From Candidatus Methylomirabilota bacterium (lineage in GTDB: Bacteria > Methylomirabilota > Methylomirabilia > Rokubacteriales > CSP1-6), in NCBI GenBank assembly GCA_036001065.1, contig DASYUQ010000077.1:12299-76298 (forward strand): a stretch of 64,000 nucleotides of DNA. Direction: 5' to 3'. This document shows, piece by piece, positions 3,041-44,192 of the stretch. Both the position numbers and the translations under genes were made by a program. The number at the start of each line of letters is the position of its first letter. Position 1 is the first letter of the stretch. The notes under the pieces are model-generated. The model ran no database searches and was not told the DNA's origin. It saw nothing but the letters and a program-made list of their open reading frames with translations.

Positions 3041-3046
3041 CTTTCC

Positions 3047-6368: not shown

Positions 6369-6384
6369 CGGCCGACGGGTCCCC

Positions 6385-6410
6385 GGAATTGTAGCACTCT
6401 GCTAGTATGG
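6385..6410. promoter_or_regulatory. AT-rich divergent promoter island: extended -10 (TGcTACAAT) on the minus strand for meaB, and TAGTAT -10-like on the plus strand for the small membrane ORF
   Basis: The plus strand reads ggaattgtagcactctgctagtatgg. This is the only AT-rich patch in a GC-rich region. Minus-strand gTGcTACAAT lies about 20 nt upstream of the meaB ATG (6368). No convincing -35 is present. Confidence 0.3.
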
Positions 6411-6417
6411 CCGGCTG

Positions 6418-6789
6418 ATGCGGGGCCTCCCCATGCTCGTCGCGCTCGCCGCCGCCGAACAGCCCCTCACGCTGCAGCGGGTATGGCTCGACCGCCTGGC
6501 GATCATCATTCCGGCGACCATGGCGACGCGGTGGCTGCTCCTCGCCGACCTCGCCTGCCTGATCGCGCTGGGGCTGGGGATGCGCCGGCCGCTGCTCGGC
6601 GTGGTCCTCACCCTTGGCGGAGGATTCCTTGTCCTCAACGGCCTCGGCATGGCGCTCACGGATTTCTACCTGGGACTCGCCCTCTTTCACTTCGTCGTCG
6701 GCGTCACCGTGGTCCTGTTCGCGCGCCGCGCGCGCTGGCTGGGCGCGGCGGCGCTGGGACTGGCGCTCGTCCTCGGCGCCCTCACCTGA
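6418..6789 (+). CDS. Small hydrophobic membrane protein (hypothetical)
   Basis: 123 aa with about 4 predicted TM helices (LVALAAA..., LLLADLACLIALGL, VVLTLGGGFLVLNGLGMAL, LALFHFVVGVTVVLF). Plus-strand codon usage is GC3-rich. It is convergent with the cytochrome gene, and an alternative start is at 6433. Confidence 0.4.
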   Translation: MRGLPMLVALAAAEQPLTLQRVWLDRLAIIIPATMATRWLLLADLACLIALGLGMRRPLLGVVLTLGGGFLVLNGLGMALTDFYLGLALFHFVVGVTVVLFARRARWLGAAALGLALVLGALT

Positions 6790-8821: not shown

Positions 8822-9509
8822 GGCGCTTCAGCTCCGCTTCGGACGGCCGCAGATAGATCGGAACGAGGTCGGCGACGGCGACGGTATCGCCGGCCAGGAG
8901 CCGGGCGAGCCCCAGGACGCCCACCGAGGCCGGCGACGGGACGCGTCGGTGCGGCGGGGCCGGGCGCGCATGCGGGGTGCGAATGGTGGCCGCCGCGTCG
9001 CCGAGGAGGATGACGGGCTCCGTCATCCGGGCGGCCAGGGCCCCGGGAGCGAGCGCGAGGTAGTCTGACTCCCGCTGCATCGCGGCCCCGTCCCATCGGT
9101 AGAACGCGCAGTAGACCTCCCCCTTACGGGCGTCGAGCACGGGGCACACCGGCAGCGACGCGAAGGGAAGCGATGCCGCCATCGCGTCGAGCGTAGGCAC
9201 CGCCGCGACCGGGATGCCGAGGGCCAGCGCCAGCCCCTTCACCGCGCTCAGCCCGATCCGCAGTCCGGTGAACGAGCCGGGTCCGACAGCGACGGCCAAG
9301 CCCTGCAGGTCGGCCGGCGTCCAGGCGGCGTCGGTCAGCAACCGGTCGATGGCCGGCAGCAGCCGCTCGGAGTGCGTGGCGCTCACGTCGAGCGAGTACT
9401 CGCCGCGGAGCCGCTCGCCGTCCAGCAGGGCCACGCCGCCCGCCAGCGTCGAAGTTTCGACCGCTAGAACGCGCACGGGCGCCAGTCTAGCACGCGGCGC
9501 CAGAGCCAA
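8802..9509 (-). CDS. tsaB: tRNA threonylcarbamoyladenosine biosynthesis protein TsaB (YeaZ)
   Basis: VRVLAVETSTLAGGVALLDG...HSERLLPAIDRLL...GPGSFTGLRIGLSAVKGLALA is canonical inactive-Kae1 TsaB. Confidence 0.75.
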   Translation of the reverse strand: MALAPRARLAPVRVLAVETSTLAGGVALLDGERLRGEYSLDVSATHSERLLPAIDRLLTDAAWTPADLQGLAVAVGPGSFTGLRIGLSAVKGLALALGIPVAAVPTLDAMAASLPFASLPVCPVLDARKGEVYCAFYRWDGAAMQRESDYLALAPGALAARMTEPVILLGDAAATIRTPHARPAPPHRRVPSPASVGVLGLARLLAGDTVAVADLVPIYLRPSEAELKRRGVTVH

Positions 9510-9517
9510 AGCCGGCG

Positions 9518-10231
9518 GTGCGATATAATACGCCCGGGAGGAAGCGGATGAGTGCCGCGCCGAAGAACGATCCCGCCGCCGTCGAGGTGGAGGTCCGTGA
9601 AAAGATCCACCTCGAGATCCTCAAGCGGACGGGTGCCTACCACGCCAACGACCACGTGCTGCTGCCCTCGGGGCAGCACACCAGCGAGTACATCGAGAAG
9701 ACGCTGGTGACGACGGAGCCATCTTTCACCGAAGGGCTCGGCGCCGTCATCGCCAAGCACTTCGCCCAGTGGCCCGTCGATGCCGTGCTCTCCACTGGTC
9801 CGGGCGCCCTCATCCTCTCCCACTGCGTGGCGCGGGCGCACCCTTCACGCCCGATTGTCGTTTATGGCACGAAGGGACTGTCCGGTGGCAAGCGGCGGGT
9901 CACGCTGCCCGTCGAGTTCCAGCGCCTGATCCGGGAGGGCGCGCGCGTCCTGCTGATCGAAGACCTCGTCAGTACCGGCACCACGCTCGACCTCCTGATC
10001 AACCTTGTCGAGCAGTTGGGCGCCGAGGTGGTGGGGATCGGGTGCCTTTGGCGCCGCACGTCTGTGCAACTGAACGGCAAGCCAGTCTTCAGTCTGGTGA
10101 GCAGGGACTTTCCGACCTACGATCCGTCAGATTGTCCTCTATGTAAAAGGGGAATACCACTGAACGAAGAGTTCGTCCGGAGGCGGCACCTGCGGCGTCC
10201 CTCGACCGTACAGGAGCCTAAGACCCCGTAG
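9518..10231 (+). CDS. Phosphoribosyltransferase, orotate-PRTase (PyrE)-like, with C-terminal CxxC tail
   Basis: PRPP-binding motif RVLLIEDLVSTGTTL, and LPSGQHTSEYIEK resembles the PyrE hood region. C-terminal DCPLCKRG. A possible later start is at 9548 (MSAAPKND). Confidence 0.5.
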   Translation: MRYNTPGRKRMSAAPKNDPAAVEVEVREKIHLEILKRTGAYHANDHVLLPSGQHTSEYIEKTLVTTEPSFTEGLGAVIAKHFAQWPVDAVLSTGPGALILSHCVARAHPSRPIVVYGTKGLSGGKRRVTLPVEFQRLIREGARVLLIEDLVSTGTTLDLLINLVEQLGAEVVGIGCLWRRTSVQLNGKPVFSLVSRDFPTYDPSDCPLCKRGIPLNEEFVRRRHLRRPSTVQEPKTP

Positions 10232-10346: not shown

Positions 10347-11099
10347 ATGTATAGGCAGGCAATCCCGCTCCTCGGTCTCGTTCTCTCGCTCGCGGTCACG
10401 AGCCTCGCGGACGCCGAGCCGGTGACGGTCCTGTTTCCGGAGGGCGTGACGCGGGCCTTCCCCATCCTACGCTCCATGGACAACGAAAAGCTCGCCCAGG
10501 GTGACCTCAGCCAGGTCGTGCGGGGTGACAAGGTTTACAGCCGCCTGGTGTTCCGCTTCAAGGACGGTTCGATCTACGACGAGAGCGTCGTCTTCACCCA
10601 GCGCGAAGTATTCACCCTCCTGAGCTACCGCATTGTGCAGAAGGGCCCCTCTTTCCCGGAGACGCTGGAGGCGGCCATCGACCGGGACACCGGACGCTAC
10701 CAGGTCCGCTACCGCGCGGACGAGGACAGCCCCGAAGAGGTCCTCACCGGAAAGTTCGCGCTCCCCGACGACGCCTACAACGGGATGCTCTTCCTGATCG
10801 TGAAGAACCTGCCCGCGCGGGCCGGGGAGACGGTTTCGATAGTGGCGTTCACGCCGAAGCCGCGGGCCGTGAAGATGCAGCTCCTGCCGGTGGCCGAAGA
10901 TCGCATGCTGGTCAGCGACTCGCCGATGCAGGCCACCCGCTATCACATCCGGCCGCAGCTCGGCCTGTTCGCCTCGCTCCTGGTGGCCGACATCCCCGAT
11001 CTCCGCATGTGGATTCTTCCCGGGGAGGCTCCGGCGTTCCTGCGCGCGGAGGGTCCGCTCTACTTCATGGGGCCGGTCTGGAGGATCGACCCCTACTAG
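10347..11099 (+). CDS. Secreted hypothetical protein (signal peptide, no lipobox)
   Basis: Start at the second Met of the track ORF (MYRQAIPLLGLVLSLAVTSLADA|EP). There is no recognisable catalytic motif. The local GC is lower than surrounding DNA. Confidence 0.5.
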   Translation: MYRQAIPLLGLVLSLAVTSLADAEPVTVLFPEGVTRAFPILRSMDNEKLAQGDLSQVVRGDKVYSRLVFRFKDGSIYDESVVFTQREVFTLLSYRIVQKGPSFPETLEAAIDRDTGRYQVRYRADEDSPEEVLTGKFALPDDAYNGMLFLIVKNLPARAGETVSIVAFTPKPRAVKMQLLPVAEDRMLVSDSPMQATRYHIRPQLGLFASLLVADIPDLRMWILPGEAPAFLRAEGPLYFMGPVWRIDPY

Positions 11100-11196
11100 A
11101 TTCCTCGGAGGGGGGCTTCGCCCCCCTTCCGAAACCTCCCCCCAGGATCCATTGCGCGGGCTAAGCCCGCGCTCGAGCCGGCCGCCCCCAGAAACT
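11100..11196. repeat. GC-rich palindromic repeat element, diverged copy F (reverse orientation), between convergent genes
   Basis: cggaggggggcttcgccccccttccgaaacctccccccaggatccattgcgcgggctaagcccgcgctcgag parallels copies D and E (cggagggggcctcggcggccccctccgaggcctcccccagga..gatggcgccggcggagccggcgctcgaa). The terminal hairpin is kept by compensatory changes (GCGCGGGCtaaGCCCGCGC versus GCGCCGGCggaGCCGGCGC). Confidence 0.5.
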
Positions 11197-17369: not shown

Positions 17370-18164
17370 TCAGTACACGCCGCCCGGGAACGTCGAGACC
17401 TCCGGGCGGCGACCGGGCACACGGTACATCTTCACGCCGGAGCCGCCCGCGCCGAACGGCGTGCCGAGGATGCCGTCGTGGATGGCCCAGCTGCGGCCCC
17501 GGATCGAGCCGTCGAACCCCCGTCGCCGGAACGGCGTCGAGTCGTCGAGGCACGCGTGCAGGGCGCCGCCGGGCTGAAAGCCGGCGTGGATGGCGTCCAT
17601 GCGGTCGCGGCCGATGAAGTAGTCGCAGCCGTGGCGCTCGTAGAGGAGCGCCGAGTGATAGAAGAGCGGTTCGACGAGATAGAACTCGCGTCCCAGCAGC
17701 CGGCAGAACGCGTCCATGCACTCCAGCACGCGGCCGATCATGCGGAGGCCCCGGCGAACCTGGCCGGGCGCGAGGCCCGCGGCGAGGGCCCGCGCCTCCT
17801 CACCGAGGTTGCGGCAGGCTGTACCGAGCAGGGTGTCGTGCCCGTGGTCGTCCCGATCGACCCCGTAGCGGGGCGTCTCCGGATCGTTGATCTGAACCAG
17901 CGACAGCTCCGGCGCCCCGAACGCCGACATGCCCATGTCGAGGAGGAGAACCGGGTCGCGATCGTGCTCGCGCGCCCAGAGCTCGATACGCACCCAGGGC
18001 TTCTCGTCCCCGGCGGTGATCCGCACCAGGCGCTCGCCGAGCGGGCCGTGCAGCTGCTGCCGGTCGACCCCGTAGACCACGAGCAGCTCCTCGGGAACGA
18101 GTCGTAGATAGAGCCGGTCGCGGACGTCGAGCGGCAGAGCGTTCAGCGCGACGATGGGGTCCAT
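17370..18164 (-). CDS. Conserved hypothetical protein (no recognisable domain)
   Basis: 264 aa with GC3-rich codon usage, packed between mobA and thiI. There are no diagnostic motifs. Confidence 0.4.
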   Translation of the reverse strand: MDPIVALNALPLDVRDRLYLRLVPEELLVVYGVDRQQLHGPLGERLVRITAGDEKPWVRIELWAREHDRDPVLLLDMGMSAFGAPELSLVQINDPETPRYGVDRDDHGHDTLLGTACRNLGEEARALAAGLAPGQVRRGLRMIGRVLECMDAFCRLLGREFYLVEPLFYHSALLYERHGCDYFIGRDRMDAIHAGFQPGGALHACLDDSTPFRRRGFDGSIRGRSWAIHDGILGTPFGAGGSGVKMYRVPGRRPEVSTFPGGVY

Positions 18165-18225
18165 TACAGGCTCGCCTCGGCCGCGGGGGCCCCAGCCCCC
18201 GGCCGTCCTGCGGCTCGCACGGCCA

Positions 18226-18822
18226 TCAGGCGAGCTCCCGGACCAGCGCCCGCGCGCGCTCCAGCTCCTCGGGCGTATTGACGTTCATGAACACGACGGC
18301 GGGGTCGACGTACCGCGCGATCTCCGCCTCATCGATCACGACGACGCGCACCTTGTCGAAGAACCCCACGATCTTCAGCCGCCCGGCCAGCAACCGCTCC
18401 TCCATGTGCGGTAGGCAGCTCTTCTGGTAGGCGGCGTGCATCGTCTCGTACTGATCGCCCACGCGCGGGATCACGACGTCCCCGAGCGGAGCGTGCTCGA
18501 CGACGAGACGGACGACCTCGCGGCGCAGGAACGGCATGTCACAGGCCACGGTGAACGCCGCCCCGCCGGAGGCCGCCTTGAGGCCCGAGTAGATGCCGCC
18601 CAGGGAGCCGTGATCCGGATAGACGTCGGGCACCATGGGCAGGCCCAGGAAGGCATAGAGCTCCGGCATGTTCGTGACGATCAGCAGGTCGTCCACGGCG
18701 CCCGCGAGCACCCCGGCCACGCGCTCGATGATCCGTCGGCCGCCCAGGTCCATCAGCGCCTTGGGTTGCCCGCCCATGCGGGTGCTCTTGCCACCGGCCT
18801 GGATCACGCCCGTGATTTTCAT
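18226..18822 (-). CDS. mobA: Molybdenum cofactor guanylyltransferase
   Basis: Start ATG 18822 (MKITGVIQAGGKSTRMGGQPKAL...). The first 29 aa of the track ORF are a read-through of repeat copy D. Confidence 0.7.
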   Translation of the reverse strand: MKITGVIQAGGKSTRMGGQPKALMDLGGRRIIERVAGVLAGAVDDLLIVTNMPELYAFLGLPMVPDVYPDHGSLGGIYSGLKAASGGAAFTVACDMPFLRREVVRLVVEHAPLGDVVIPRVGDQYETMHAAYQKSCLPHMEERLLAGRLKIVGFFDKVRVVVIDEAEIARYVDPAVVFMNVNTPEELERARALVRELA

Positions 18823-18896
18823 TCGAAGGGGGCCTCGGCGGCCCCCTCCGAGGCCTCCCCCAGGATCGATGGCGCCGGCAAAGCCGACGCTCGAAC
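18823..18896. repeat. GC-rich palindromic repeat element, copy D (reverse orientation), immediately 5' of mobA
   Basis: cgaagggggcctcggcggccccctccgaggcctcccccaggatcgatggcgccggcaaagccgacgctcgaa is about 90% identical to copy E over about 70 bp. Confidence 0.6.
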
Positions 18897-18919
18897 GCTG
18901 GCCTCGCAACAGCGGGGCG

Positions 18920-19531
18920 TCATATCACGCGCACGGCGCCCTGGCGGATCACGCGCGGCGGATCGACGGTGACGTCGAGCACCGTGGAGGCCAGCCCACC
19001 GGCCGTCGGGCCGCCGTCGAGCACCAGCGCGATCGCGCCGTCCAGATCACGCAGCACCGCGTCTGCAGTCGTCGGCGGAGGATCGTCGGACCGGTTCGCG
19101 CTGGGCGCCGTCACCGGTCCGCCGAGCGCTCGGGCCAAGCCGCGCGCGATCGGATGAAGCGAGAGCCGCACGCCGACCGTGCCCGTCCCCGCCGTGACCT
19201 CCACCGGCACCGACGGCTGGGCGGGCAGCACCAGCGTCAGGGCTCCGGGCCAGTGTTGGGCCATGAGTCGGCGGGCGGGCTCGGAGATGACCGCCAGCCG
19301 CTCGACCATCTCCACCGAGTCGACGAGCACCAGCAGCGGCTTCGATTCGGGGCGGCGCTTGACCTCGAAGATCCGCCTCACCGCCCCCCCATCCAGCGCC
19401 GCGGCGCCGAGGCCGTAGAAGGTCTCGGTGGGATAGGCGACCAGACCGCCCTTCTTCAGCGCGGCCGCCCCGCGCTGGAGCGCAGCGGCGTCAGGGTTCG
19501 CGGGATCGACCTTCAGGACCTCCGTGCCCAT
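18920..19531 (-). CDS. tsaC: L-threonylcarbamoyladenylate synthase (YrdC/Sua5 family)
   Basis: YPTETFYGLGAAA and the YrdC fold, 203 aa. Confidence 0.7.
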   Translation of the reverse strand: MGTEVLKVDPANPDAAALQRGAAALKKGGLVAYPTETFYGLGAAALDGGAVRRIFEVKRRPESKPLLVLVDSVEMVERLAVISEPARRLMAQHWPGALTLVLPAQPSVPVEVTAGTGTVGVRLSLHPIARGLARALGGPVTAPSANRSDDPPPTTADAVLRDLDGAIALVLDGGPTAGGLASTVLDVTVDPPRVIRQGAVRVI

Positions 19532-19546
19532 GCCCTCACGTCCCGG

Positions 19547-20062
19547 TTATTCGCGTGCCTTCATCCGTTCGGCGACGCGGCGCGCCCGCTCGTCGACCTC
19601 GGCGGCCAGGCGCCTTCGGTAGGCCGCCAGGCGCTCGCTCACGGCGGGATCGGCGACGGCCAGAATCTGCGCCGCCAGGATCGCGGCGTTCACCGCGCCC
19701 CAGGTACCGATGGCCACCGTGGCCACGGGCACGCCCTTGGGCATCTGGGCGATCGACAGGAGCGCATCGAGGCCGCCGAGCGGGGTGGAGGCGATGGGCA
19801 CGCCGATGACGGGCAGCGGCGAGGCCGCCGCCAGAACGCCGGGCAGCGCAGCGGCGCCGCCGGCCGCACCGATGAGGACGCCAAGGCCACGCGCATGAGC
19901 CGTCGCCGCGTAGTCGTGGGTCCGCTGGGGCGTGCGATGGGCGGAGGCCACCACCACCTCGCTGCCGATCTCGAGCGCATCGAGGACCTTCACTGCCTCC
20001 AGCATGACCTCGAGGTCCGAATCGCTGCCGAGCACGATGCCGACACGCACAGGTCTATCCAC
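19547..20062 (-). CDS. purE: 5-(carboxyamino)imidazole ribonucleotide mutase
   Basis: GTG start at 20062 with RBS AGGAAGGGG. It overlaps the purD stop as [20 protein letters not shown]...ASAHRTP...[12 protein letters not shown]. Confidence 0.8.
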
Positions 20063-21330
20063 TATCCGATCCCCTTCCTGCCGATGTCGGTGCGATAGTG
20101 CACACCGTCGAAGCGGATCCGCGCCGCCGCCTGGTAGGCGTGTGCGATCGCCTCGCGGAGCGCGGGTGCCGTGGCCGTCACGCTCAGCACGCGCCCGCCG
20201 GCCGTGACGAGCTTGCCGTCGCGCTCGGCCGTCCCCGCGTGGAAGACGCGCACGCCCTCCACCGTCTCGGCGGCGTCGATGCCGTCGATGGGGAGGCCCA
20301 TCGGGTAGCGCTCCGGGTAGCCGGCGGAGGCCAGCGTCACGCACACCGCCGCCTCGGGCCTCCAGGCGACGCGCTCGGGCAGCCGATCACCGCGCGCGGC
20401 GGCCAGCAGAAGCGGCACGAGGTCACTCCCGAGCCGCACCACGAGCGCCTGGCACTCCGGGTCACCGAAGCGGCAGTTGAACTCCAGCACCTTCGGTCCC
20501 TCGCCCGTCATCATCAGCCCGACGAAGAGCACGCCGCGGTAGGGCATACCGTCCTTGGCCAGCGCCGCGATCGTGGGATCGACGATACTCTCCATCACCT
20601 GCTGTTCGGCCGCGGCATCGATCCCCGGCACCGGCGAGTAGGCCCCCATGCCGCCGGTGTTCGGTCCACGGTCGTCGTCGAAGACCGTCTTGTGATCTCG
20701 TGCGGCGCCGAGAGGCACCGCGGCCTGGCCATTGGCCAGGGCGAAAAACGAGACCTCCCCACCACGCAAGAACTCCTCAATCACGACCTTCTTCCCGGCA
20801 TCGCCAAATACCCTGAGTTCCATCGCCGCCGATATGGCCTTGGCCGCTTCCTCGGCCGTCTGACACACGGTCACGCCTTTACCCGCGGCGAGTCCGTCGA
20901 CCTTTACGACCACGGGCTGGCTAAGCCCTCGGCAGTGGTCGATCGCGGCCCTGACGTCGTCAAAGGTCTCAAATCGCGCGGTGGGGATCCGGTAGCGCTT
21001 CATCAGCGACTTCGCGAACGCCTTCGATCCCTCGATCTGCGCCGCGGCCGCGGTCGGCCCGAAGACGGCCAGCCCCCGCGAGGTGAAGCGGTCGGCGAGT
21101 CCGGCGACCAGCGGCCCTTCGGGCCCCACGACGGTGAAGTCGATCCGCTCGCGCTCGGCGAAGGCGAGGAGCTCGTCGTGGGCCTCGGCTTTGATGGGCA
21201 CGCACTTCGCGTGACGCGCGATGCCCGGATTGCCGGGCGCGGCGTAGAGCGTGTCGACCAGCGGGCTCTGCGCGAGCTTCCAGGCCAGCGCGTGCTCCCG
21301 TCCCCCACCGCCCACCAGCAGCAGCTTCAT
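20062..21330 (-). CDS. purD: Phosphoribosylamine--glycine ligase
   Basis: Start ATG 21330 ([19 protein letters not shown]...) with an ATP-grasp domain. Confidence 0.85.
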
Positions 21331-22229
21331 TCGGGCGGGCCCCCTCCAGGCGGCTCCACGACTTCCAGGTGCGCGCGGGCGATGCGGGCCCACGGGCTAC
21401 CCGAGTCCAGCTCGAGGTACCGCTGCCAGTGCGCGACCGCTTCCGCGTTGCGGCCGGCCCGGGCGAGCGCCGCCGCCAGGTTGAAGTGAGCGTCGGCGTA
21501 GTCGGGCGACAGCTCGAGCGCGCGCCGGTAATGGACGATCGCCTGCTCGGCATCGCCGCAGTCCTCGTCGAGCGATCCCAGGTTGTAGGCGGCCTCGGCG
21601 CACCGGGGGTCCTGCTCCAGCGCGGCCGTGTACGCCGCCCGCGCCTCCTCGTATCGTCCCATCCGGTGCAGGAGGAGCCCGAGGTTGTTCCAGGCGGCGG
21701 CGTAGGTCGGATCGAGGGCCACCACGCGGCGATAGGCATCGATGGCGTCCTCCCAGTGCCCGGGATCGGCATCCCACTCGCTGGCCCGCTCGAACCAGGT
21801 CTCCGCCTGGGCGGCGGGCGGATACAGCGGCCGGACCAGCCCCGTGGCGAGGGTCGCCGCCGCGTCCTTGGTGAGGCCGCCGGCGTCGAGCGCGAGCACC
21901 GTCTGCCCGGTGCGGGGATCGAAGCGGACGCGCTCGGACTGAGCGAGGAGGCGATCGCCCTCGACGATGAAGCGCACCTCCGCCAGCGGGCTCTCCAGAT
22001 CGGGGTCCTGCTTCCGGAGCGCCAGCAGCGCCTCGCGGATCTGGCGTACCGATGCGCCCGCGTCCAGCAGCGCGGTGGCCGCCTTGAGCGCCAGGAGGTC
22101 GCGGAAGGTGTAGCCGGCGTCGCCGCGGAGCAGATCGAGCCGCCGGAGTTGGGCCAGCCGCCGGGGCGTGAGGCTCAGAATCCGGGTCAGATCCCGGAGC
22201 CCATAGATCCGTTCGGGACCCCGTGCCAT
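21327..22229 (-). CDS. MerR-like HTH + TPR-repeat protein embedded in the pur operon
   Basis: N-terminal IYGLRDLTRILSLTPRRLAQLRRLDLL (MerR-type HTH) followed by several TPR units (AAWNNLGLLLHRMGRYEEARAAY...). Its stop and start overlap purD and purH. Confidence 0.5.
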   Translation of the reverse strand: MARGPERIYGLRDLTRILSLTPRRLAQLRRLDLLRGDAGYTFRDLLALKAATALLDAGASVRQIREALLALRKQDPDLESPLAEVRFIVEGDRLLAQSERVRFDPRTGQTVLALDAGGLTKDAAATLATGLVRPLYPPAAQAETWFERASEWDADPGHWEDAIDAYRRVVALDPTYAAAWNNLGLLLHRMGRYEEARAAYTAALEQDPRCAEAAYNLGSLDEDCGDAEQAIVHYRRALELSPDYADAHFNLAAALARAGRNAEAVAHWQRYLELDSGSPWARIARAHLEVVEPPGGGPPE

Positions 22230-22234
22230 CGCGG

Positions 22235-23920
22235 TCAGTGGCGGAAGTGACGGATGCCGGTGAAGACCATCGCCACCCCGCGCTCGTCGGCCGCCGCGAT
22301 GACCTCCTGATCCCGGAGCGAGCCGCCCGGCTGGATGACGGCCGTGACCCCGGCCTGAGCCACGACGTCGAGACCGTCGCGGAACGGGAAGAACGCGTCG
22401 GAGGCGCAGACGCTGCCTTCGGTGCCGAGCCCGGCCTCGCGCGCCCGCATGACGGCCAGGCGCGCGGAGTCCAGGCGATTCATCTGCCCGGCCCCGACGC
22501 CGACCACCTGATCGCCTGTGGTCAGCACGATGGCGTTCGATTTGACGTGCTTGGCCACCCGCCAGGCGAAGCCGAGCGCGGCCATCTCGTCGGGAGTGGG
22601 CGCGCGCCGGGTGACCGTCTTGAGGGTCTTCTCATCGAGGTCGACCGCGTCCGCCGCCTGCACCAGCAGACCACCGAGCACGCTCCGGTACTCGACGAGC
22701 CGCGGGAGCCGTTCGCACGGTACCTGGAGCACACGGCACTTCTTCTTCGTCCGCCTGAGCTCCTCCAGCGCCTCGGGAACGAAGGCGGGCGCGAAGAGGA
22801 TCTCGACGAAGATGCCGGCGAGCTCCCGGACGACGGCCGGGTCGAAGGCGCGGTTGACGCCGACGATCCCGCCGTAGATCGATACCGGATCCGACGCTTT
22901 CGCCTTGGCCATGGCGGCGCCGGCGGTGGCGGCGACCGCGGCACCGCACGGGTTGGTGTGCTTGACGACGACGGCCGCCGGCTCGGCGAACTCGAGCAAC
23001 AGCCCCAGGGCCGCCGAGAGGTCGAGCAGATTGTTGTAACCGAGCTCGGGCCCGTGCAGCTGCCGCATGGCGCCGAGCCCGAAGGGGAACCCGCCGAGGA
23101 GGCGGTAGAACGCCGCCGCCTGGTGGGGGTTCTCGCCGTACCTCAGACCGAGCGCCCGCTCGGCCTCGAGCCGCAGCCGCTCCGGAAACTGCTCCGTTCG
23201 AGCGCCGGCTTCGCCGGCGCAATCCGTCCTGGGGGAGGTCTCGGAGGGGACCGTCGCGCCCTCCGGGCGCGCCTGTGGAGTCGCCCCCTCCGACCGGGAT
23301 GGGAGGCGAAGCCCCCCTCCGAGGGAGGCGGCCCCCTCCGAAGAAAAATGAGCGGCGATCGCCGCGTCGTATTCGGCCGTCCGCCGGAACGCTTGCTGGG
23401 CCAGACGAGCGCGCGTCTCGTCGCTAAGCGCGCCGCCGCTGGCCCGCAGCTCTCCCAGGACCTCCGCGTACTGCGAGGGATCGGTGACGACGGCCACGCT
23501 CGCGTGGTTCTTGGCGGCGGCGCGAATCATGGCCGGACCCCCGATGTCGATCTGCTCGATCGCCTCGGCGCGCGTGACGCCGGGCCGCGCCACCGTGGCC
23601 TCGAACGGGTAGAGCGCCACGACGACGAGGTCGATCGGCGGGATCCCGTGCTGCTCGAGCGCGGCCGCATGCTCGGGGGAGTCCCGGCGGGCCAGGATGC
23701 CTCCGTGAATCTTGGGATGGAGCGTCTTGACACGACCGTCGAGCATCTCGGGAAACCCGGTGACGTCGGCGACCTCGCGCACCGGCACCCCCGAGTCCCG
23801 GAGCAGCCGAGCCGTCCCGCCCGTCGAGAGGAGCTCCACCCCCAGCTCCCGGAGGGCTCTGGCCAGCTCGACCACACCGGTCTTGTCGTGAACGCTCACG
23901 AGCGCACGCCGGACCTTCAT
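22235..23920 (-). CDS. purH: Bifunctional AICAR transformylase / IMP cyclohydrolase, with repeat-derived about 50-aa insertion in the interdomain linker
   Basis: MGS-like N-domain (VRRALVSVHDKTG...) and AICARFT C-domain. The linker segment SSEGAASLGGGLRLPSRSEGATPQARPEGATVPSETSPRTDCAGEAGARTEQ is encoded by repeat copy C. Confidence 0.85.
   Translation of the reverse strand: MKVRRALVSVHDKTGVVELARALRELGVELLSTGGTARLLRDSGVPVREVADVTGFPEMLDGRVKTLHPKIHGGILARRDSPEHAAALEQHGIPPIDLVVVALYPFEATVARPGVTRAEAIEQIDIGGPAMIRAAAKNHASVAVVTDPSQYAEVLGELRASGGALSDETRARLAQQAFRRTAEYDAAIAAHFSSEGAASLGGGLRLPSRSEGATPQARPEGATVPSETSPRTDCAGEAGARTEQFPERLRLEAERALGLRYGENPHQAAAFYRLLGGFPFGLGAMRQLHGPELGYNNLLDLSAALGLLLEFAEPAAVVVKHTNPCGAAVAATAGAAMAKAKASDPVSIYGGIVGVNRAFDPAVVRELAGIFVEILFAPAFVPEALEELRRTKKKCRVLQVPCERLPRLVEYRSVLGGLLVQAADAVDLDEKTLKTVTRRAPTPDEMAALGFAWRVAKHVKSNAIVLTTGDQVVGVGAGQMNRLDSARLAVMRAREAGLGTEGSVCASDAFFPFRDGLDVVAQAGVTAVIQPGGSLRDQEVIAAADERGVAMVFTGIRHFRH
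23199..23349. repeat. GC-rich palindromic repeat element, long copy C (forward orientation), in-frame inside purH
   Basis: The 5' module ttcgagcgccggcttcgccggcgcaatccgtcctgggggaggtctcggagggga matches the reverse complement of copy E's 3' end (A and C share the core TTCGAGCGCCGGCTYCGCCGGC and GGGGAGG-YCGGAGGGG). The 3' module ggccccctccgaagaaaaa matches copies A and B. Confidence 0.6.
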
Positions 23921-23924
23921 TCGA

Positions 23925-24539
23925 TCACCATCCCACGATCACTCTCCTGCCGACGATCCTAAGCCGCCCTTCCGCGAAGAGCCGCACCGCCTGCGGATAG
24001 AGCCGGTGCTCCTCGGCGAGGATCCGTGCCGCCAGCGTCTCCTCGGTGTCGTCGGGCTGCACGGGGACGCTCGATTGTAAGATGATCGGGCCGGTGTCCA
24101 CGCCTTCGTCGACGAAGTGGACGGTGGCGCCCGAGATCTTCACGCCATGGTCGAGCGCCTGGCGCTGGGCGTTCAGCCCGGGGAAGGCCGGCAGCAGCGA
24201 GGGGTGGATGTTCATGATCCGCCCCGTCCACGCCCGGACGAACGCCGGTCCGAGGACACGCATGAAGCCGGCCAGGCAGACGAGCCCGACCTGATGCGCC
24301 TCGAGGACCTTGGTGATGGCGGCGTCGTAGGCCTCGCGGGCGCCGAAGTCCTTGGGGTTCAGGAGCACGGCCGGCACCCCCCGCTCGGCGGCGATCTTCA
24401 GCGCCCGGGCGCCCTCGCGATCGGAGACGACCACGGCGACCCGGGCCGGAAAGTCGGTGCGCGCGCTGGCGTCGAGGATCGCCTGGAGGTTCGAGCCGCG
24501 ACCGGAGGCGAGCACGCCGACCCGGAGAAGCTCCTTCAC
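23925..24539 (-). CDS. purN: Phosphoribosylglycinamide formyltransferase
   Basis: VGVLASGRGSNLQAIL...HPSLLPAFPG. Confidence 0.8.
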   Translation of the reverse strand: MKELLRVGVLASGRGSNLQAILDASARTDFPARVAVVVSDREGARALKIAAERGVPAVLLNPKDFGAREAYDAAITKVLEAHQVGLVCLAGFMRVLGPAFVRAWTGRIMNIHPSLLPAFPGLNAQRQALDHGVKISGATVHFVDEGVDTGPIILQSSVPVQPDDTEETLAARILAEEHRLYPQAVRLFAEGRLRIVGRRVIVGW

Positions 24540-25834
24540 GCGGCGTCGCGCTCCTTGGGGGCGGCGGCGTGAAGGGCGCAGATCGGGCAGCGTGGCACCT
24601 GTCGCATGATGGCCGAGTCCCGCGGGAAGAAGCGGGCCAGGGACCAGTCGAGCGCCACCTGGAGTTGCTTGCGGACGCCGACCAACTTCAGGAGGTGGAG
24701 CGCGTTCCAGAAGAGCCAGGCCGGGTAGCCGGAGAACCGGAACCCCATGACCTCGACCACGGCGTCCTTCTCGCCCAGCGACACCAGCATCCCGCGCGGC
24801 GCAAAGTCGATCGGCCGCAGCGCGCGGCCGGCGAGGTCGGCCACGATGTTCTCGGCGACCAGGCGCCCGTGGGCCAGCGCCGCCGGGATGATGGGAATGG
24901 AGGCTTGGGGCTTGCCCTCGATGCTGACCGCGTCCCCGGCGCCGTAGACCTCCGGATGGCCGGGAATCTGGAGGAAGCTGTTGACGACGATCCGCCCCAG
25001 TCGATCGTGGCCGACGGGGAGGTGGGCCAGTGCCGGGTGGCCCTTGACGCCCGCGGCCCAGACGATCAGGCCCGCCGCGATCGACTCGCCACCCCCTACC
25101 TCGACGACGCCGGGCAGCACCCGCGTGACGCGCGTTCGGGTCTTGACCTCGATGCCCTCGCGGTGCAGCCGCCGGTGCGCTCGTTCCGCGAGCGCGGGAT
25201 GGACGCCGCGCAGGATCTCCTCGCCCGCCTCGAGGACGACCAGGCGGTAGTCGCCGGCCTCGATGCCGCGGTAGCGCGGCACCACATACGAATGGAAGAA
25301 GTCGTGCAGCTCCGCCACCAGCTCGACGCCGGTGTAGCCGCCGCCAACGACGCAGACCGTCAGCATGCGCCGACGGACGTCGGGATCGGGCTCGTGATCG
25401 GCGTGCTCGGCGAGGTCGATCAGATGATCGCGCAGGAGGATGGCGTCGTCGAGGTGCTTGTACGGGAGCGCGTGCTCCTCGACGCCGGGGATCCCGAAGC
25501 TCGGCGTCGTTCCGCCGAGCGCGATCACCAGACGGTCATAGGCCACGGTCCCCTCGGCGAGGACGACCCGACGCGCGGCCAGATCGATGTCGAGCACCTG
25601 GTCGCGGCGGAAGCGGAATCGGCGGGCCCCGCGGAGGTCGCGGATCGGTTGGATGATGTGGCGCGGCTCGACGAGCGAGGAGGCCACCTGGGGCAGCAGC
25701 GGGGTGAACAGCAGATAGTTGCGGTCGCTCACCAGGAGCAGCTCGACATCCTGCCGGGGGCCCAGCCGGCGATCCAGCACGCGGATCGCCTCCAGCCCGG
25801 CGAAGCCGCCGCCCAGCACCGCGATGCGGCTCAC
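24536..25834 (-). CDS. ndh: Type II NADH:quinone oxidoreductase (NDH-2)-family flavoprotein, embedded in the pur operon
   Basis: GTG start 25834 (VSRIAVLGGGFAGLEA...). It has two Rossmann GxGxxG motifs (the second is VVGGGYTGVE). GTGA overlap with the purM stop and ATGA overlap with the purN start. Confidence 0.6.
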   Translation of the reverse strand: MSRIAVLGGGFAGLEAIRVLDRRLGPRQDVELLLVSDRNYLLFTPLLPQVASSLVEPRHIIQPIRDLRGARRFRFRRDQVLDIDLAARRVVLAEGTVAYDRLVIALGGTTPSFGIPGVEEHALPYKHLDDAILLRDHLIDLAEHADHEPDPDVRRRMLTVCVVGGGYTGVELVAELHDFFHSYVVPRYRGIEAGDYRLVVLEAGEEILRGVHPALAERAHRRLHREGIEVKTRTRVTRVLPGVVEVGGGESIAAGLIVWAAGVKGHPALAHLPVGHDRLGRIVVNSFLQIPGHPEVYGAGDAVSIEGKPQASIPIIPAALAHGRLVAENIVADLAGRALRPIDFAPRGMLVSLGEKDAVVEVMGFRFSGYPAWLFWNALHLLKLVGVRKQLQVALDWSLARFFPRDSAIMRQVPRCPICALHAAAPKERDAA

Positions 25835-26862
25835 GCCACCAGCTCCACGCCGCGCTCGCCGGCCACGATCTCGCCCAGCCGGTGCACCGTCTCGCCGGCG
25901 ACGGCGAGCGCCGCTCCGGCGGCCTCGGCGTGCGGCGCCGGCACGACGACCACGTAGCCGATCCCCATGTTGAAGGTCCTGAACATCTCCGCGTCGGCCA
26001 CCCGGCCGGCCCGCTGCAGCGTCTCGAACACGGCCGGCACCTGCCACGACTTGCGGTGGATCAGGGCGCGACACCCCTCGGGCAGCACGCGGGGAACGTT
26101 CCCGACGATCCCGCCGCCCGTGATGTGCGCCATCGCTCCCACCTCCATCCGCTCCAGCAAGGCGAGGATCGGGCGCACGTAGATCCGCGTCGGCTCCAGC
26201 AGCTCGGCGGCGACGGCGCGGCCCGTTCCGGGCAGCTCGGCGTCGATCGACAGCTTGAGGACGTCGAAGACGATCCGGCGCGCCAAAGAGTAGCCGTTCG
26301 AGTGGAGGCCGGACGATGCCAACCCGAGCAGGATGTCTCCCGGTCGCACGCGAGCGCCGTCGACGATGCGGCTCTGCTCCACGACGCCCACGGCGAACCC
26401 GGCCAAATCGTATTCTCCCGGCCCGTAGAGGTCGGGCAGCTCGGCGGTCTCCCCCCCGATCAGCGCGCAGCCCGCCCGCCGGCACCCCTCGACCACCCCG
26501 CGCACGATCGTCTCCACCCGCGCGGGGTCCAGGCGCGCGATGCCGATGTAATCCAGAAAGTAGAGGGGCTCGGCGCCGTGGACGAGAAGGTCGTTGACGC
26601 CCATGGCCACCAGGTCGATGCCCACGGTCTGGTGGCGGTCGGCCATGAAGGCCACTTTGAGCTTCGTGCCCACGCCGTCCGTCGACGACACCAGCACCGG
26701 CTCGCGGAACTTCTGGGGCACCCTGACGAACCCCGCGAAGGCCCCGATGCCGCCGATGACCTCCGGCCGGAAGGTGGTACGGGCCAGCGGCGCGATGCGG
26801 CGAACCGCCTCGTCGCCGGCCTCGATGTCGACGCCGGCGTCACGGTAGGTCGGTCGATCCAT
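25831..26862 (-). CDS. purM: Phosphoribosylformylglycinamidine cyclo-ligase (AIR synthetase)
   Basis: Start ATG 26862 (MDRPTYRDAGVDIEAGDEAV...). The first 45 aa of the track ORF are read-through of repeat copy E. Confidence 0.85.
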   Translation of the reverse strand: MDRPTYRDAGVDIEAGDEAVRRIAPLARTTFRPEVIGGIGAFAGFVRVPQKFREPVLVSSTDGVGTKLKVAFMADRHQTVGIDLVAMGVNDLLVHGAEPLYFLDYIGIARLDPARVETIVRGVVEGCRRAGCALIGGETAELPDLYGPGEYDLAGFAVGVVEQSRIVDGARVRPGDILLGLASSGLHSNGYSLARRIVFDVLKLSIDAELPGTGRAVAAELLEPTRIYVRPILALLERMEVGAMAHITGGGIVGNVPRVLPEGCRALIHRKSWQVPAVFETLQRAGRVADAEMFRTFNMGIGYVVVVPAPHAEAAGAALAVAGETVHRLGEIVAGERGVELVA

Positions 26863-26877
26863 CGGCGGCGCTAGCTC

Positions 26878-26952
26878 AGTCGGAGGGGGCCTCGGCGGCC
26901 CCCTCCGAGGCCTCCCCCAGGAAGGGATGGCGCCGGCGGAGCCGGCGCTCGA
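26878..26952. repeat. GC-rich palindromic repeat element, copy E (reverse orientation), in the purF-purM intergenic spacer
   Basis: agtcggagggggcctcggcggccccctccgaggcctcccccaggaagggatggcgccggcggagccggcgctcgaa. Its 3' 22 nt are the exact reverse complement of copy A's 5' 22 nt (ttcgagcgccggctccgccggc). Confidence 0.6.
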
Positions 26953-27000
26953 AACAGCGAGCAGTGGCCGGAGTAAGCTGGCGCCATTCGCCAACAACCG

Positions 27001-28413
27001 CTAGTCGTCGAACAGCCTGAGCTGCGGGCTCGGCTCGGGCGCGATCCCCACCCGGTAATTGCCGGTGAAGCAGGCGTGGCAGAAGTGGCTGGGGTCCGCG
27101 CCGGTGGCCTTCAGCATGCCCTCGAGCGAGAGGTATCCGAGCGAATCGGCGCCGACATACCGGCGGATCTCTTCGACGTTGTGACTGGCGCCGATCAGCT
27201 CCCTCCGGGTCGGGGTGTCGATGCCGTAGTAGCAGGGCCACTTGATCGGCGGCGACGAGATCCGCATGTGGACCTCGCGGGCGCCGGCGTTCCGGATCAT
27301 CCTCACGATCTTGCGGCTGGTGGTGCCGCGGACGATCGAGTCGTCGACGACCACGACCCGCCGCCCCTCCAGCATCTCCCGCATCGGGTTGAGCTTCACC
27401 TTGACGCCGAAGTGGCGGATGCCCTGCTTGGGCTCGATGAACGTGCGGCCCACGTAGTGGTTGCGGATGAGGCCCATCTCGTAGCGCACCCCCGACTGCT
27501 CGGAGAAGCCGAGCGCCGCGCTGGTGCCCGAGTCCGGCACCGGGATGACGATGTCGGCCTCCACCGGGTGCTCGCGAGCCAGCTCCCGCCCGAGCGCCTT
27601 GCGGACGGTGTGCACGTTGCGGCCCCAGAGGACGGAGTCGGGCCGCGCGAAGTAAACGTACTCGAAGACGCAGTGCAGGCGCTCCCCGGCGGGGGCGTAG
27701 CGGCGAGATTGCACGCCGGCCTCCGAGATGACGACGATCTCCCCCGGCTCGACCTCGCGCTCGTACTTCGCCTCGATGAGGTCGAGCGCGCACGTCTCCG
27801 AGGCGACCACCCACGAGTCGGTGAGCCTCCCCAGTCCCAGCGGCCGGAAGCCATTCGGGTCGCGCACGGCGTACATGGCGTCCGGCGTGAGGATCAGCAG
27901 CGAGTATGCCCCCGTCACCTGCCGGAGCGCATGCGGGAGTTGCTCCGCCAGCGTCCCGGCGGGGGCGCGCGCGAGGAGGTGGAGGATGACCTCGGTGTCG
28001 GAGTTGGACTGGAAGATGGCGCCCTCCCGCTCCATCTCCCTCCGCAGCGCCTCGGCGTTGGTCAGGTTGCCGTTGTGGGCGATGGCGATCGGGCCGCGGG
28101 CGGTGTTGGCCGTGATGGGCTGGGCGTTGCGGAGCTTCGAGGAGCCGGCCGTCGAGTAGCGGACGTGACCGATGGCGCGGTGGCCGGGAAGCCGGCGCAG
28201 GCGCTCGGGGCCGAAGACGTCGGCGACCCATCCCATCGCCTTCTCGGTGTGGAAGCTCTGCCCGTCGGTCGCGGCGATCCCCGCGGACTCCTGCCCGCGG
28301 TGCTGGAGCGCGTAGAGACCGAGGTAGGCGACGTTGGCGGCCTCCGGATGATTCCAGATGCCGAACACCCCACACTCGTCGTGGAACTTGTCGTCACGCC
28401 AGGTGACGCTCAA
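27001..28413 (-). CDS. purF: Amidophosphoribosyltransferase
   Basis: Short propeptide, then CGVFGIW (Ntn Cys), a PRTase domain, and C-terminal Fe-S cysteines. Confidence 0.85.
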
Positions 28414-32388: not shown

Positions 32389-32413
32389 CGCTCTACCCTC
32401 TATTTCGCGCTTT

Positions 32414-32520
32414 TCGAGCGGCGGCTTTGCCGCCGCGATCCTATGGGGTGGTTCGGAGGGGGCCGCGAGGCCCCCTCTGACTAGGGATCCCGGAGGGGGC
32501 GGCGCCCCCCTCCGACAAAA
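32414..32520. repeat. GC-rich palindromic repeat element, copy B (forward orientation), overlapping the purB 3' end
   Basis: ttcgagcggcggctttgccgccgcgatcctatggggtggttcggagggggccgcgaggccccctctgactagggatcccggagggggcggcgcccccctccgacaaaa. It is near-identical to copy A. The 5' hairpin has compensatory changes (GCGGCGGCtttGCCGCCGC versus GCCGGCtccGCCGGC). Confidence 0.65.
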
Positions 32521-43861: not shown

Positions 43862-44192
43862 TCACCTCCTACGATCTACGATACGTTTCCCGCTCGCCTC
43901 GGGCGCAGGGGCCCCTGGCTGCCCTGCGGCTCGCACCGCGGCCCCCGGCCGTCCTGCGGCTCGCACGACCATCTCCAGACTGGCCCCAGCCTCGCACGGT
44001 TTCCTGAACGCCTGCGCGAATCTCCCTGACTTCATCGCGCGCTCGAGACAGCCCGGGTCCGCGCACAGGTAGGCGCCACGGCCGACTCCCGTGGGGTCGT
44101 GGACGACGACGCCGTCCGGACGGCGAACCAACCGCACCAGCTCCAGCTTGGGTCGCACCTGCCGGCATCCCACGCACGTGCGCCGAGGACCT

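Follow-up and report, generated by a model that had tools for sequence, protein, structure and literature searches.

Repetitive extragenic palindromes (REPs) and bacterial interspersed mosaic elements (BIMEs), found in enterobacteria and pseudomonads, have been proposed to stabilise mRNA, and there is precedent for effects of such elements on transcripts. The REPs themselves are single palindromes of 20-40 nt carrying a GTAG or CGTC tag (PMC3733652). Correia elements of Neisseria (Correia repeat enclosed elements, CREE, or Neisseria miniature insertion sequences, NEMIS) are ~100-150 bp long and abundant, lie next to or in transcription units, are co-transcribed and affect the expression of their neighbours, and Rickettsia palindromic elements (RPEs) form in-frame insertions in protein-coding genes (PMC10969869). 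The insertion sequence (IS) IS5 duplicates Py-T-A-Pu, most often CTAG (PMC5493358). Here we analysed two copies, designated D and E, of a structured repeat in a 64,000-nt stretch of DNA from a Candidatus Methylomirabilota bacterium (hereafter the window; assembly GCA_036001065.1, contig DASYUQ010000077.1, positions 12,299 to 76,298 of the forward strand), which has a GC content of 69.7% and nearly all of its genes on the minus strand. The initial annotation had suggested that both copies might act on RNA processing, stability or translation within polycistronic mRNA, as proposed for REP/BIME. Comparison with relatives made it quite probable that D and E are instead two insertions of a non-autonomous, MITE-like mobile element of ~95-130 bp (MITE, miniature inverted-repeat transposable element), which spread through Candidatus Rokubacteria and whose choice of target would set its position.

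Both copies lie between co-directional minus-strand genes, with two hairpins (H1 and H2) in each, and the features of the two junctions are as follows.

18226-18822, minus strand: mobA-like NTP transferase gene (Pfam), start ATG at 18822, 198 aa
18819-18822, minus strand: right ATGA of D, containing the mobA start ATG (18820-18822); possible right copy of a duplication
18823-18919, minus strand (sense, the strand of the genes): copy D, whole element, 97 nt, 75% GC, nhmmer E=1e-19
18823-18851, minus strand: hairpin H2 of D, 12-bp stem and 5-nt loop, UCGGAGGGGGCC-GCCGA-GGCCCCCUUCGA, its foot touching the mobA AUG
18854-18865, minus strand: linker of D, UCCUGGGGGAGG, a predicted single-stranded Shine-Dalgarno (SD)-like GGAGG, 2 nt 5' of H2
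18872-18890, minus strand: hairpin H1 of D, GCGUCGGC-UUU-GCCGGCGC, with one G-U pair
18920-18923, minus strand: left ATGA of D, containing the Sua5 stop TGA (18920-18922); possible left copy of a 4-bp duplication
18920-19531, minus strand: Sua5/YrdC gene (Pfam)
25831-26862, minus strand: purM (Pfam), start ATG at 26862, 343 aa
26871-26874, minus strand: right CTAG of E, a duplicated target or the element terminus, 8 nt 5' of the purM ATG
26875-27000, minus strand: copy E, whole element, 126 nt, 73% GC, nhmmer E=9e-18
26880-26908, minus strand: hairpin H2 of E, 12-bp stem, from the predicted fold
26930-26948, minus strand: hairpin H1 of E, 8-bp stem GCGCCGGC/GCCGGCGC, from the predicted fold
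27001-27004, minus strand: left CTAG of E, containing the purF stop TAG (27001-27003)
27001-28413, minus strand: purF (Pfam)

Copy D occupies the full 97-nt Sua5-mobA spacer in the order left arm, H1, linker, H2, and copy E, a form with a long left arm, lies within the 138-nt purF-purM spacer. The annotation of D and E as copies of a dispersed structured repeat in operon spacers was borne out by the 38-mer GGGGGCCTCGGCGGCCCCCTCCGAGGCCTCCCCCAGGA, which occurs exactly twice (18828-18865 and 26885-26922; match in 0/100 shuffles), and by an nhmmer profile that found six copies in the window (E 1e-15 to 1e-19). D and E are 96% identical over the first 47 nt and ~89% identical over 78 nt of core. 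Their reverse orientation also held, being opposite to that of copies A, C and F and the same as that of copy B, as did the contact between D and mobA, with the foot of H2 at 18823 and the A of the ATG at 18822. Copy E does lie upstream of the purM ATG, but the distance from its H2 foot (26880) to the ATG (26862) is 17 nt rather than the 16 nt given before, and the extent first assigned to the elements was too small, since D and E take up nearly the whole of their spacers.

To compare these junctions with those of relatives, we used the loci returned by a metagenome scan with PurM, which gave 80 loci with flanks of up to 10 kb, including 32 at 68-78% PurM identity that represent related Rokubacteria. 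The purF-purM junction carried no element in 30 of the 32 relatives; copies occurred there only in loci L131 and L144, that of L136 lying elsewhere. In these relatives the purF stop and the purM start were mostly 0-10 nt apart, as in TGAcGTG or CTAGcgcgATG, and the few longer spacers had other sequence. In L129 and L130 the site is empty and reads gacgtCTAGcgcgATG, and the filled site of the window reads gacgaCTAG[126 nt]CTAGcgccgccgATG, so that the two differ by the element plus one CTAG exactly. L131 (sense, 9297-9376) and L144 (partial antisense, 4966-5029) hold independent insertions into the same junction, in which the element lies within the first purM codons. At the Sua5-mobA junction, the element was present in 0 of the 12 relatives covering it, and the genes ranged from a 4-nt overlap (GTGA in L129 and L150) to a distance of ~110 nt, several being 0-8 nt apart and the longer spacers having no element. 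The window itself shows CTAG[126 nt]CTAG at purF-purM (E) and ATGA[97 nt]ATGA at Sua5-mobA (D); at this second, single site an ancestral ATGA overlap that was duplicated on insertion may explain both the ATGA flanks and the intactness of the two genes. By comparison with these junctions, D and E are derived insertions, with insertion polymorphism at orthologous sites.

The element proved to be one of a large family. A motif of 21 specified bases taken from the element, scanned against one genome per species, returned at least 120 stretches, and among the matches listed were more than 120 loci in more than 25 metagenome-assembled genomes (MAGs), nearly all from Candidatus Rokubacteria/Rokuibacteriota/Methylomirabilota and originating from soil, groundwater and lakes. 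When 119 distinct copies were aligned, the family consensus was GTTCGAGCGCCGGCTTTGCCGGCGCAATCnnTCCTGGGGGAGGCnTCGGAGGGGGCCGTCGAGGCCCCCTCCGA, with a mean column identity of 72%. H1 forms an 8-bp stem and H2 a 12-bp stem, 97.8% of cells being paired over the 119 copies; the pairs of H2 were retained in 96-99% of copies, and two pairs of H1 showed CG<->GC double changes in 28-29 sequences. These pairing and covariation values were reached by 0/500 shuffles. The central motif served as bait in the scan and its conservation is partly by construction, while H1 and the 3' half of H2 lie outside the bait.

As judged from the alignment, a full copy consists of (C)TAG, a left terminal repeat GAGCCTGTCGGAG, a variable left arm, H1, a linker CCTGGGGGAGG, H2, 2-5 nt and a second (C)TAG. 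H1 is preceded by TTCGA and H2 by CC or TC, the short linker motif between them is GGGGGAGG, and the sequence after H2 is AAUGAAAAUC in D and CUGAGCUAGC in E. In long and medium forms the arm on the H1 side measures 28-67 nt and begins with CTAG followed by GAGCCTGTCGGAG(T)AA, giving a left motif CTAG-N5-TGTCGGAG and a right end CTCCGA-N4-5-CTAG. The right terminal repeat is a CTCCGAC in the 3' arm of H2, which in D contains the core of this repeat, and the left core GTCGGAG is its inverse; the resulting imperfect terminal inverted repeats (left TGTCGGAG, right CTCCGACA) were seen only in long and medium forms. NTAN together with the repeat core was found in 21/116 left flanks (~18%) against a background of 3%. 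Copy E has the layout gacgaCTAG, CGGTTGTTGGCGAATGG...H1...H2...GACTGAG, CTAG, cgccgccg, ATG, and D, of medium form, has a left repeat that has diverged (TGTTGCGAGG; left end CGCCCCGCTGTTGCGAGG...) and ATGA on both sides. The whole element is free of stop codons in all six frames, and no start-to-stop open reading frame (ORF) is confined within D (97 nt) or E (126 nt). Rfam gave no match at gathering score in the whole window and none at D or E at E<=1 in 18000-28000.

We then examined where copies sit, calling the surrounding genes with a finder based on codon-position GC that matched the mobA and purC starts of the Joint Genome Institute (JGI) exactly and that of purM within ~20 nt. Among 139 non-edge copies, 17 of which had one or both neighbouring genes unresolved, 49 lay antisense in co-directional spacers, 37 in convergent spacers, 30 sense in co-directional spacers (as do D and E), 2 in divergent spacers and 4 (~3%) inside ORFs. 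Over the sampled loci, copies occupied 45% of convergent spacers (37/82), 13% of co-directional spacers (89/685) and 2.4% of divergent spacers (2/84; divergent versus convergent, Fisher 8e-12). This ranking parallels the number of stop codons that each type of spacer offers, namely two, one and none. Orientation within operons leaned towards antisense (49 versus 30 sense, 62:38; p=0.04).

The flanks of the copies were in keeping with this ranking. CTAG was found within 12 nt of the H2 foot in 37/127 copies, compared with 0.34 expected from a background of 0.3 CTAG per kb, an enrichment of ~100-fold; other right flanks showed YTAR (CTAA or TTAG, 18/127) or another CTA (14/127). In antisense copies, a distance of 0-8 nt separated the H2 foot from the stop of the gene that is read toward it. 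Genes abutting the H2 foot ended in TAG in 45/73 cases versus 32% overall (p=2e-7), and genes on the H1 side did so in 25/47 (p=0.003). Of all CTAGs in the loci, 45% were stop codons and only 14% lay inside genes, though 91% of the sequence is coding. Copies would thus be found at gene ends because a CTAG-like target is very rare in genomes of 70% GC and occurs mostly in TAG stops. The family offers a clear example of how target preference alone, when a rare tetranucleotide coincides with stop codons, can gather a mobile element in operon junctions and at the ends of convergent genes, a target-driven pattern that mimics the 'functional' distribution of REP-like elements.

These observations suggested the following course of events. 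The element would insert at CTAG-like targets and hence accumulate at gene ends, where the flanking repeat would preserve the upstream stop codon and, at an ATGA overlap, the downstream start as well. E would have entered the CTAG of the purF stop, moving the purM start from a few nucleotides to 138 nt away, and D would have entered the Sua5/mobA junction, where it now touches the mobA ATG. Given that IS5 duplicates Py-T-A-Pu and mostly CTAG, the simplest source would be a transposase of IS5 type that acts in trans. The enzyme is most likely a DDE transposase of this type, although none was found in the fetched loci, which were searched for pairs of element-type ends and long shared repeats.

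Like MITEs derived from the IS5 family, the element is small and geneless, has many dispersed copies with CTAG/CTAA/TTAG flanks and, in long and medium forms, imperfect terminal inverted repeats, and shows filled versus empty sites; it differs from them in having no matching autonomous IS within the 1.8 Mb fetched, a left end that can be recognised in only about one-fifth of copies, and ATGA flanks at D. Judged by these features, the element behaves like a MITE, closest to IS5-type derivatives. We know of no sequence similarity between it and any described MITE, and a literature search turned up no Rokubacteria-specific repeat.

Several points weigh against this interpretation. The left and right tetranucleotides were identical in 8/16 copies, compared with 7.4 expected from shuffles, a comparison that is uninformative since CTAG dominates; because agreement was no better than in shuffles, a true 4-bp duplication is statistically inseparable from a CTAG target combined with a CTAG borne by the element. 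No autonomous element with these ends was present in 1.8 Mb of fetched loci, which were searched for inverted terminal-motif pairs 0.7-3 kb apart with YTAR-like flanks and by all-against-all BLAST; the searches yielded one motif-pair match that was judged spurious, and BLAST repeats that were only orthologous matches. A recognisable left repeat with its tetranucleotide was seen in only ~18% of copies, most left ends being short or decayed, and D itself has ATGA rather than CTAG flanks and a diverged left repeat. H1 and H2 are strongly conserved and covary in many species, and this may also be due to a selected host function. Co-transcription and effects at the RNA level are matters that we infer from sequence, and a longer PurM might arise if ribosomes re-initiate at the TTG that lies 3 nt past the purF stop, an outcome to which we give little credence.

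The remaining copies of the window show how the same family behaves in other settings.

2416-2530, plus strand: copy A, carrying one additional H2-like module and lying within a CoA-transferase ORF
11100-11178, minus strand: copy B, between convergent genes; the plus-strand gene has its stop codon in the CTAG at 11096-11099
23194-23340, plus strand: copy C, which carries additional H2-like modules and lies in frame within the purH interdomain linker
32408-32520, plus strand: copy F, with an extra H2-like module, giving purB its last 24 codons and stop

Copy C constitutes a 38-aa in-frame insertion, EGAASLGGGLRLPSRSEGATPQARPEGATVPSETSPRTDCAGEAGAR, in the PurH linker between IMPCH and AICARFT (purH, 22235-23920, minus strand), and this insertion is absent in more than 15 relatives. 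The purB stop codon lies inside copy F (32441-32520), so that the last 24 residues, SEGGAAPSGIPSQRGPRGPLRTTP, are encoded by the element, and PurB of most relatives aligns only up to residue 421-422. Copy A is contained in a fused two-domain CoA-transferase ORF (1163-3043, minus strand), where its frame is the antisense one that PurH and PurB also use (..IPSQRGP..PLRTSPSEGCAGGAGAR). In the PDB alignment with glutaconate CoA-transferase 1poi_A it falls into an unaligned gap that separates two aligned blocks; this suggests an insertion in the CoA-transferase, for which the alignment is not decisive. In L131 and L144 no ATG, GTG or TTG follows the element, and PurM of these lineages must therefore start upstream, at a GTG, and include 26-40 residues from the element. 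As judged from reading frames, members of the family are translated in frame as part of the linker of PurH, the tail of PurB and the PurM proteins of L131 and L144, apparently also within the CoA-transferase ORF.

These copies resemble RPEs; D and E do not, as their conserved start codons lie downstream of the element. Only ~3% of the surveyed copies lie in ORFs, versus most RPEs, and the phylum, base composition and sequence are unrelated. The element shares with Correia elements its size, its abundance, its placement at transcription units and its probable co-transcription, which is likewise a property of enterobacterial repetitive intergenic consensus (ERIC) sequences. Correia elements, however, have 26-bp inverted repeats, a TA duplication, an integration host factor (IHF) site, promoters and a long repeat-repeat helix cleaved by RNase III, whereas the Rokubacteria element has repeats of ~7-8 nt, a CTAG target, no promoter motifs that we found and stems of 8-12 bp that are too short for classical RNase III substrates. 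The mycobacterial interspersed repetitive units (MIRUs) and the BOX elements of pneumococcus are also modular, as are copies A, C and F with their H2-like modules, and occupy intercistronic operon spacers with open frames running through them; MIRUs are tandem minisatellites with small ORFs overlapping the flanking stop and start, BOX is assembled from boxA, boxB and boxC, and neither has this sequence or CTAG flanks.

A more specific version of the MITE interpretation would be an element that homes to stop codons, targeting and duplicating CTAG or TGA/ATGA and so rebuilding the stop (plus the start at ATGA), which would let it settle in operon junctions while leaving the genes whole, with a right arm whose GGAGG, brought beside the displaced start codon across a hairpin, would serve as a portable ribosome-binding site and a stop-free antisense frame (Ser/Glu/Ala/Gly/Pro) that would be repeatedly recruited as linkers or tails, all of it shaped to be near-neutral in gene-dense, high-GC genomes. 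We put this composite picture forward only tentatively.

The element could alternatively have been moved by a single-strand Y1 transposase, either a REP-associated tyrosine transposase (RAYT) or an IS200/IS605-type enzyme acting on a palindrome-associated transposable element ('PATE'), inserting 3' of CTAG and carrying its own CTAG as the right-end cleavage site, with no true duplication. Subterminal hairpins at both ends, a CTAG fixed 4-5 nt beyond the H2 foot, the chance-level agreement of the left and right tetranucleotides and the lack of a recognisable left inverted repeat in most copies are all consistent with this mechanism. However, GTCGGAG cores in inverted arrangement at the two ends, together with ATGA/ATGA around D, fit cut-and-paste transposition with duplication, and the bias of orientation to gene direction is weak (62:38). 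The left and right hairpins of IS608 are near-identical, unlike H1 and H2, which are unrelated. No Y1 transposase was seen in the fetched loci, which were searched for end pairs and long repeats with no screen for transposase genes. We regard a Y1 mechanism as unlikely, and retain cut-and-paste insertion of a MITE-like element as the better account.

Sense copies that end at a start codon raised the further possibility that the element serves as a portable ribosome-binding site, in which the single-stranded GGGGGAGG would act as SD sequence and the folded H2 would bring it near the AUG, rescuing translation after the native site had been displaced. Hairpin-bridged ribosome-binding sites are known from genes 38 and 25 of phage T4. 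Copy D has the matching order of GGAGG, CC, 29-nt H2 and AUG: the only SD-like motifs of mobA are borne by the element, the GGAGG lying 2 nt 5' of H2 and the H2 foot at the AUG. In ~8/31 sense copies the downstream start likewise lies within 9 nt of the H2 foot, leaving no room for a separate site, and sense copies with a more distant start usually have a GGAGG-like motif of their own. Copy E, by contrast, is unfit for this role, with 17 nt plus a hairpin as spacing and no SD motif in the 17 nt between H2 and purM. The proximity of starts is already explained by insertion at the stops of tight junctions, and the orientation of copies in operons leans the other way, to antisense (49 versus 30; p=0.04). 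A portable ribosome-binding site seems improbable to us, although if the hairpin-bridged GGAGG of D does drive mobA translation, it would be a new use of a mobile element.

The initial annotation had further held that the elements create artefactual N-terminal extensions of MobA and PurM, and this was largely upheld. A longest-ORF rule indeed extends mobA to TTG 18909, 10 nt after the Sua5 stop, and purM to TTG 26997, 3 nt after the purF stop and in frame with purM, and the extension peptides that had been quoted, SVGFAGAIDPGGGLGGGRRGPLR and SAGSAGAIPSWGRPRRGPP, are correct in-frame translations. The statement that ORF finders extend both genes applies to this rule and not to the JGI caller, which on contigs from JGI soil-type metagenomes encoding an identical PurM protein gave the short forms (PurM 343 aa, MobA 198 aa). 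MobA started at the codon used in the window in 12 relatives (M-[KR]-[IV]-T-G-V-I-Q-A-G-G), as did PurM in most of ~30 relatives ([MV]-[KD]-P-L-T-Y-R), the short N-termini in the window being MKITGVIQAGGK for MobA and MDRPTYR for PurM. Most relatives have no possible PurM extension because an upstream stop lies only 0-10 nt away. The codon-position GC signal began at 18822, exactly at the mobA start, and at 26841, ~20 nt inside the purM ORF, and did not run upstream into the elements.

Genuine extension would have ribosomes re-initiate at TTG 26997 or 18909 after the purF or Sua5 stop to make an extended PurM or MobA, possibly beside the short forms. The frames are open and in frame through both elements, purM has no SD motif after H2 and its ancestral junction suggests coupling, and the element must be translated in L131 and L144, just as the family is in PurH, PurB and apparently the CoA-transferase. 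On the other hand, the canonical ATGs are kept at conserved N-terminal positions with no extension in relatives, no SD motif precedes either TTG, and the H2 half is read in different frames in D and E (GGGLGGGRRGPLR versus SWGRPRRGPPRPPP), giving unrelated Gly/Arg/Pro-rich peptides. Open frames cross the elements because, at 73-75% GC, a stop-free frame of ~100 nt is expected by chance, and as coding sequence these frames show no conservation. Re-initiation at these codons therefore seems unlikely, and the extensions are very probably reading-frame artefacts, the real starts being ATG 18822 and ATG 26862. A stop-free repeat at gene boundaries across Rokubacteria MAGs means that longest-ORF or permissive gene calling will produce false N-terminal extensions and fused ORFs, and that insertions which are truly in frame, such as those in the linker of PurH, the tail of PurB and, in some lineages, PurM, may be taken for errors.

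With regard to the RNA-level role that had first been proposed, the elements would be selected REP/BIME-like RNA elements whose hairpins determine how stable the mRNA segments are, or how the flanking cistrons are processed or translated. We found that both spacers form stable predicted structures (D, -68.7 kcal/mol, z -2.2; E, -93 kcal/mol, z -3.3). A scan of 18000-28000 for sigma-70 promoters and intrinsic terminators revealed no promoter-like site and, on either strand, no terminator-like site at D or E; the one terminator-like site in this interval lies inside purH and is unrelated to the elements. Because the genes from purB to mobA are also co-directional with short gaps, both copies are probably inside operon mRNA, and we infer that D and E are co-transcribed in a long minus-strand pur operon. 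The insertions would have turned tight, probably translationally coupled junctions into long structured spacers.

Conserved hairpins with compensatory changes, stable predicted structures and the confinement of copies almost entirely to spacers that are likely transcribed (with high occupancy in convergent and only 2.4% in divergent, promoter-bearing spacers) all agree with a REP/BIME-like role, as does the precedent of ERIC and Correia effects on transcripts (PMC10969869). Like REP/BIME, the element is GC-rich and palindromic and lies in transcribed spacers and at gene 3' ends, rarely in promoter regions. However, nearly all relatives have the same junctions without the element and with genes intact and tightly spaced, and both orientations occur in operons (30 sense, 49 antisense), even at one junction (L131 versus L144). 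The spacer bias is accounted for by CTAG/stop-codon targeting, and conservation of the hairpins is equally expected from recognition by a transposase. Moreover, REPs have neither terminal inverted repeats nor duplications and show a link to RAYT genes (as in REPIN-RAYT), whereas the Rokubacteria element is a unit of 97-126 nt with two unrelated hairpins plus arms, CTAG flanks and no GTAG or CGTC head; no RAYT link was seen in the fetched loci, which were searched only for long shared repeats and end pairs, with no screen for transposase genes. The element thus lacks what defines REP/BIME, and as far as these comparisons reach, a selected role of this kind is not needed to explain its position; we rate such a role as unlikely. 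Hairpins in mRNA and loss of coupling are likely side effects, and any effect on mRNA decay or on mobA or purM translation would be a by-product and not the cause of the element's presence. Tightly coupled gene pairs split by 100-140 nt of structured RNA nevertheless constitute natural experiments on coupling and mRNA decay in an uncultured phylum.

That the hairpins are intrinsic terminators or attenuators dividing the pur operon into transcription units is highly improbable: the stems are G+C-rich, 45% of convergent spacers in the sampled loci hold a copy and high-GC bacteria use some terminators without U-tracts, but no U-tract follows H1 or H2 in either orientation, no terminator-like site was found at D or E, downstream genes would lose transcription with no promoter-like site following, and relatives do without the element.

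Other classes of sequence were considered and set aside. A tRNA-like origin of the TTCGAG motif found no support, an integron attC site was ruled out because orientations are mixed and a cassette array is missing, CRISPR was ruled out as copies are not arrayed, and a small RNA gene or riboswitch was ruled out by the occurrence of both orientations relative to genes and of some intragenic copies.

Local amplification of modules was observed in several copies. Locus L086 has three tandem H1 modules (6310-6430), and copies A, C and F of the window carry one to three extra H2-like hairpins after a CTAG, which could stem from repeat insertion into the CTAG of an earlier copy or from slippage. In L003, the same strain in another sample, a 122-nt tandem duplication (9342-9583) comprising the last 18 nt of Sua5, D and ATGAA lies 5' of mobA and yields a mini-ORF of 8 codons; the duplication represents either a genuine structural variant or a misassembly at the repeat. 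At the PurH linker spot occupied by copy C, L137 has a different tandem insertion (EPQARPTAA repeats) and L127 yet another.

Between its other genes, the pur operon of the window carries two unexpected passengers: an NDH-2-like (type II NADH dehydrogenase-like) pyridine-nucleotide disulfide oxidoreductase between purM and purN (~24536-25834; L001 gene 11029-12327) and a tetratricopeptide repeat (TPR) protein between purH and purD (21327-22208; L001 gene 14634-15536).

Further repeat families were found at the same junctions. A second, unrelated GC-rich family, GTGCGAGCCGCAGGACGGCCGGGGGCTGGGGCCCCCGCGGCCGAGGCGAGC, occupies the spacer just downstream of mobA (18165-18225), has two tandem copies at 43900-43975, and is present in the Sua5-mobA spacer, the junction of D, in L130, L137 and L147; L028 and L041 have it too. 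In another lineage, L154-L156, the purF-purM spacer is filled by two copies of a third repeat, gtggc(a/c)cttcgagc(t/g)ga...gaggcgagggctgag. It appears that several families of repeats share these operon junctions as hot spots.

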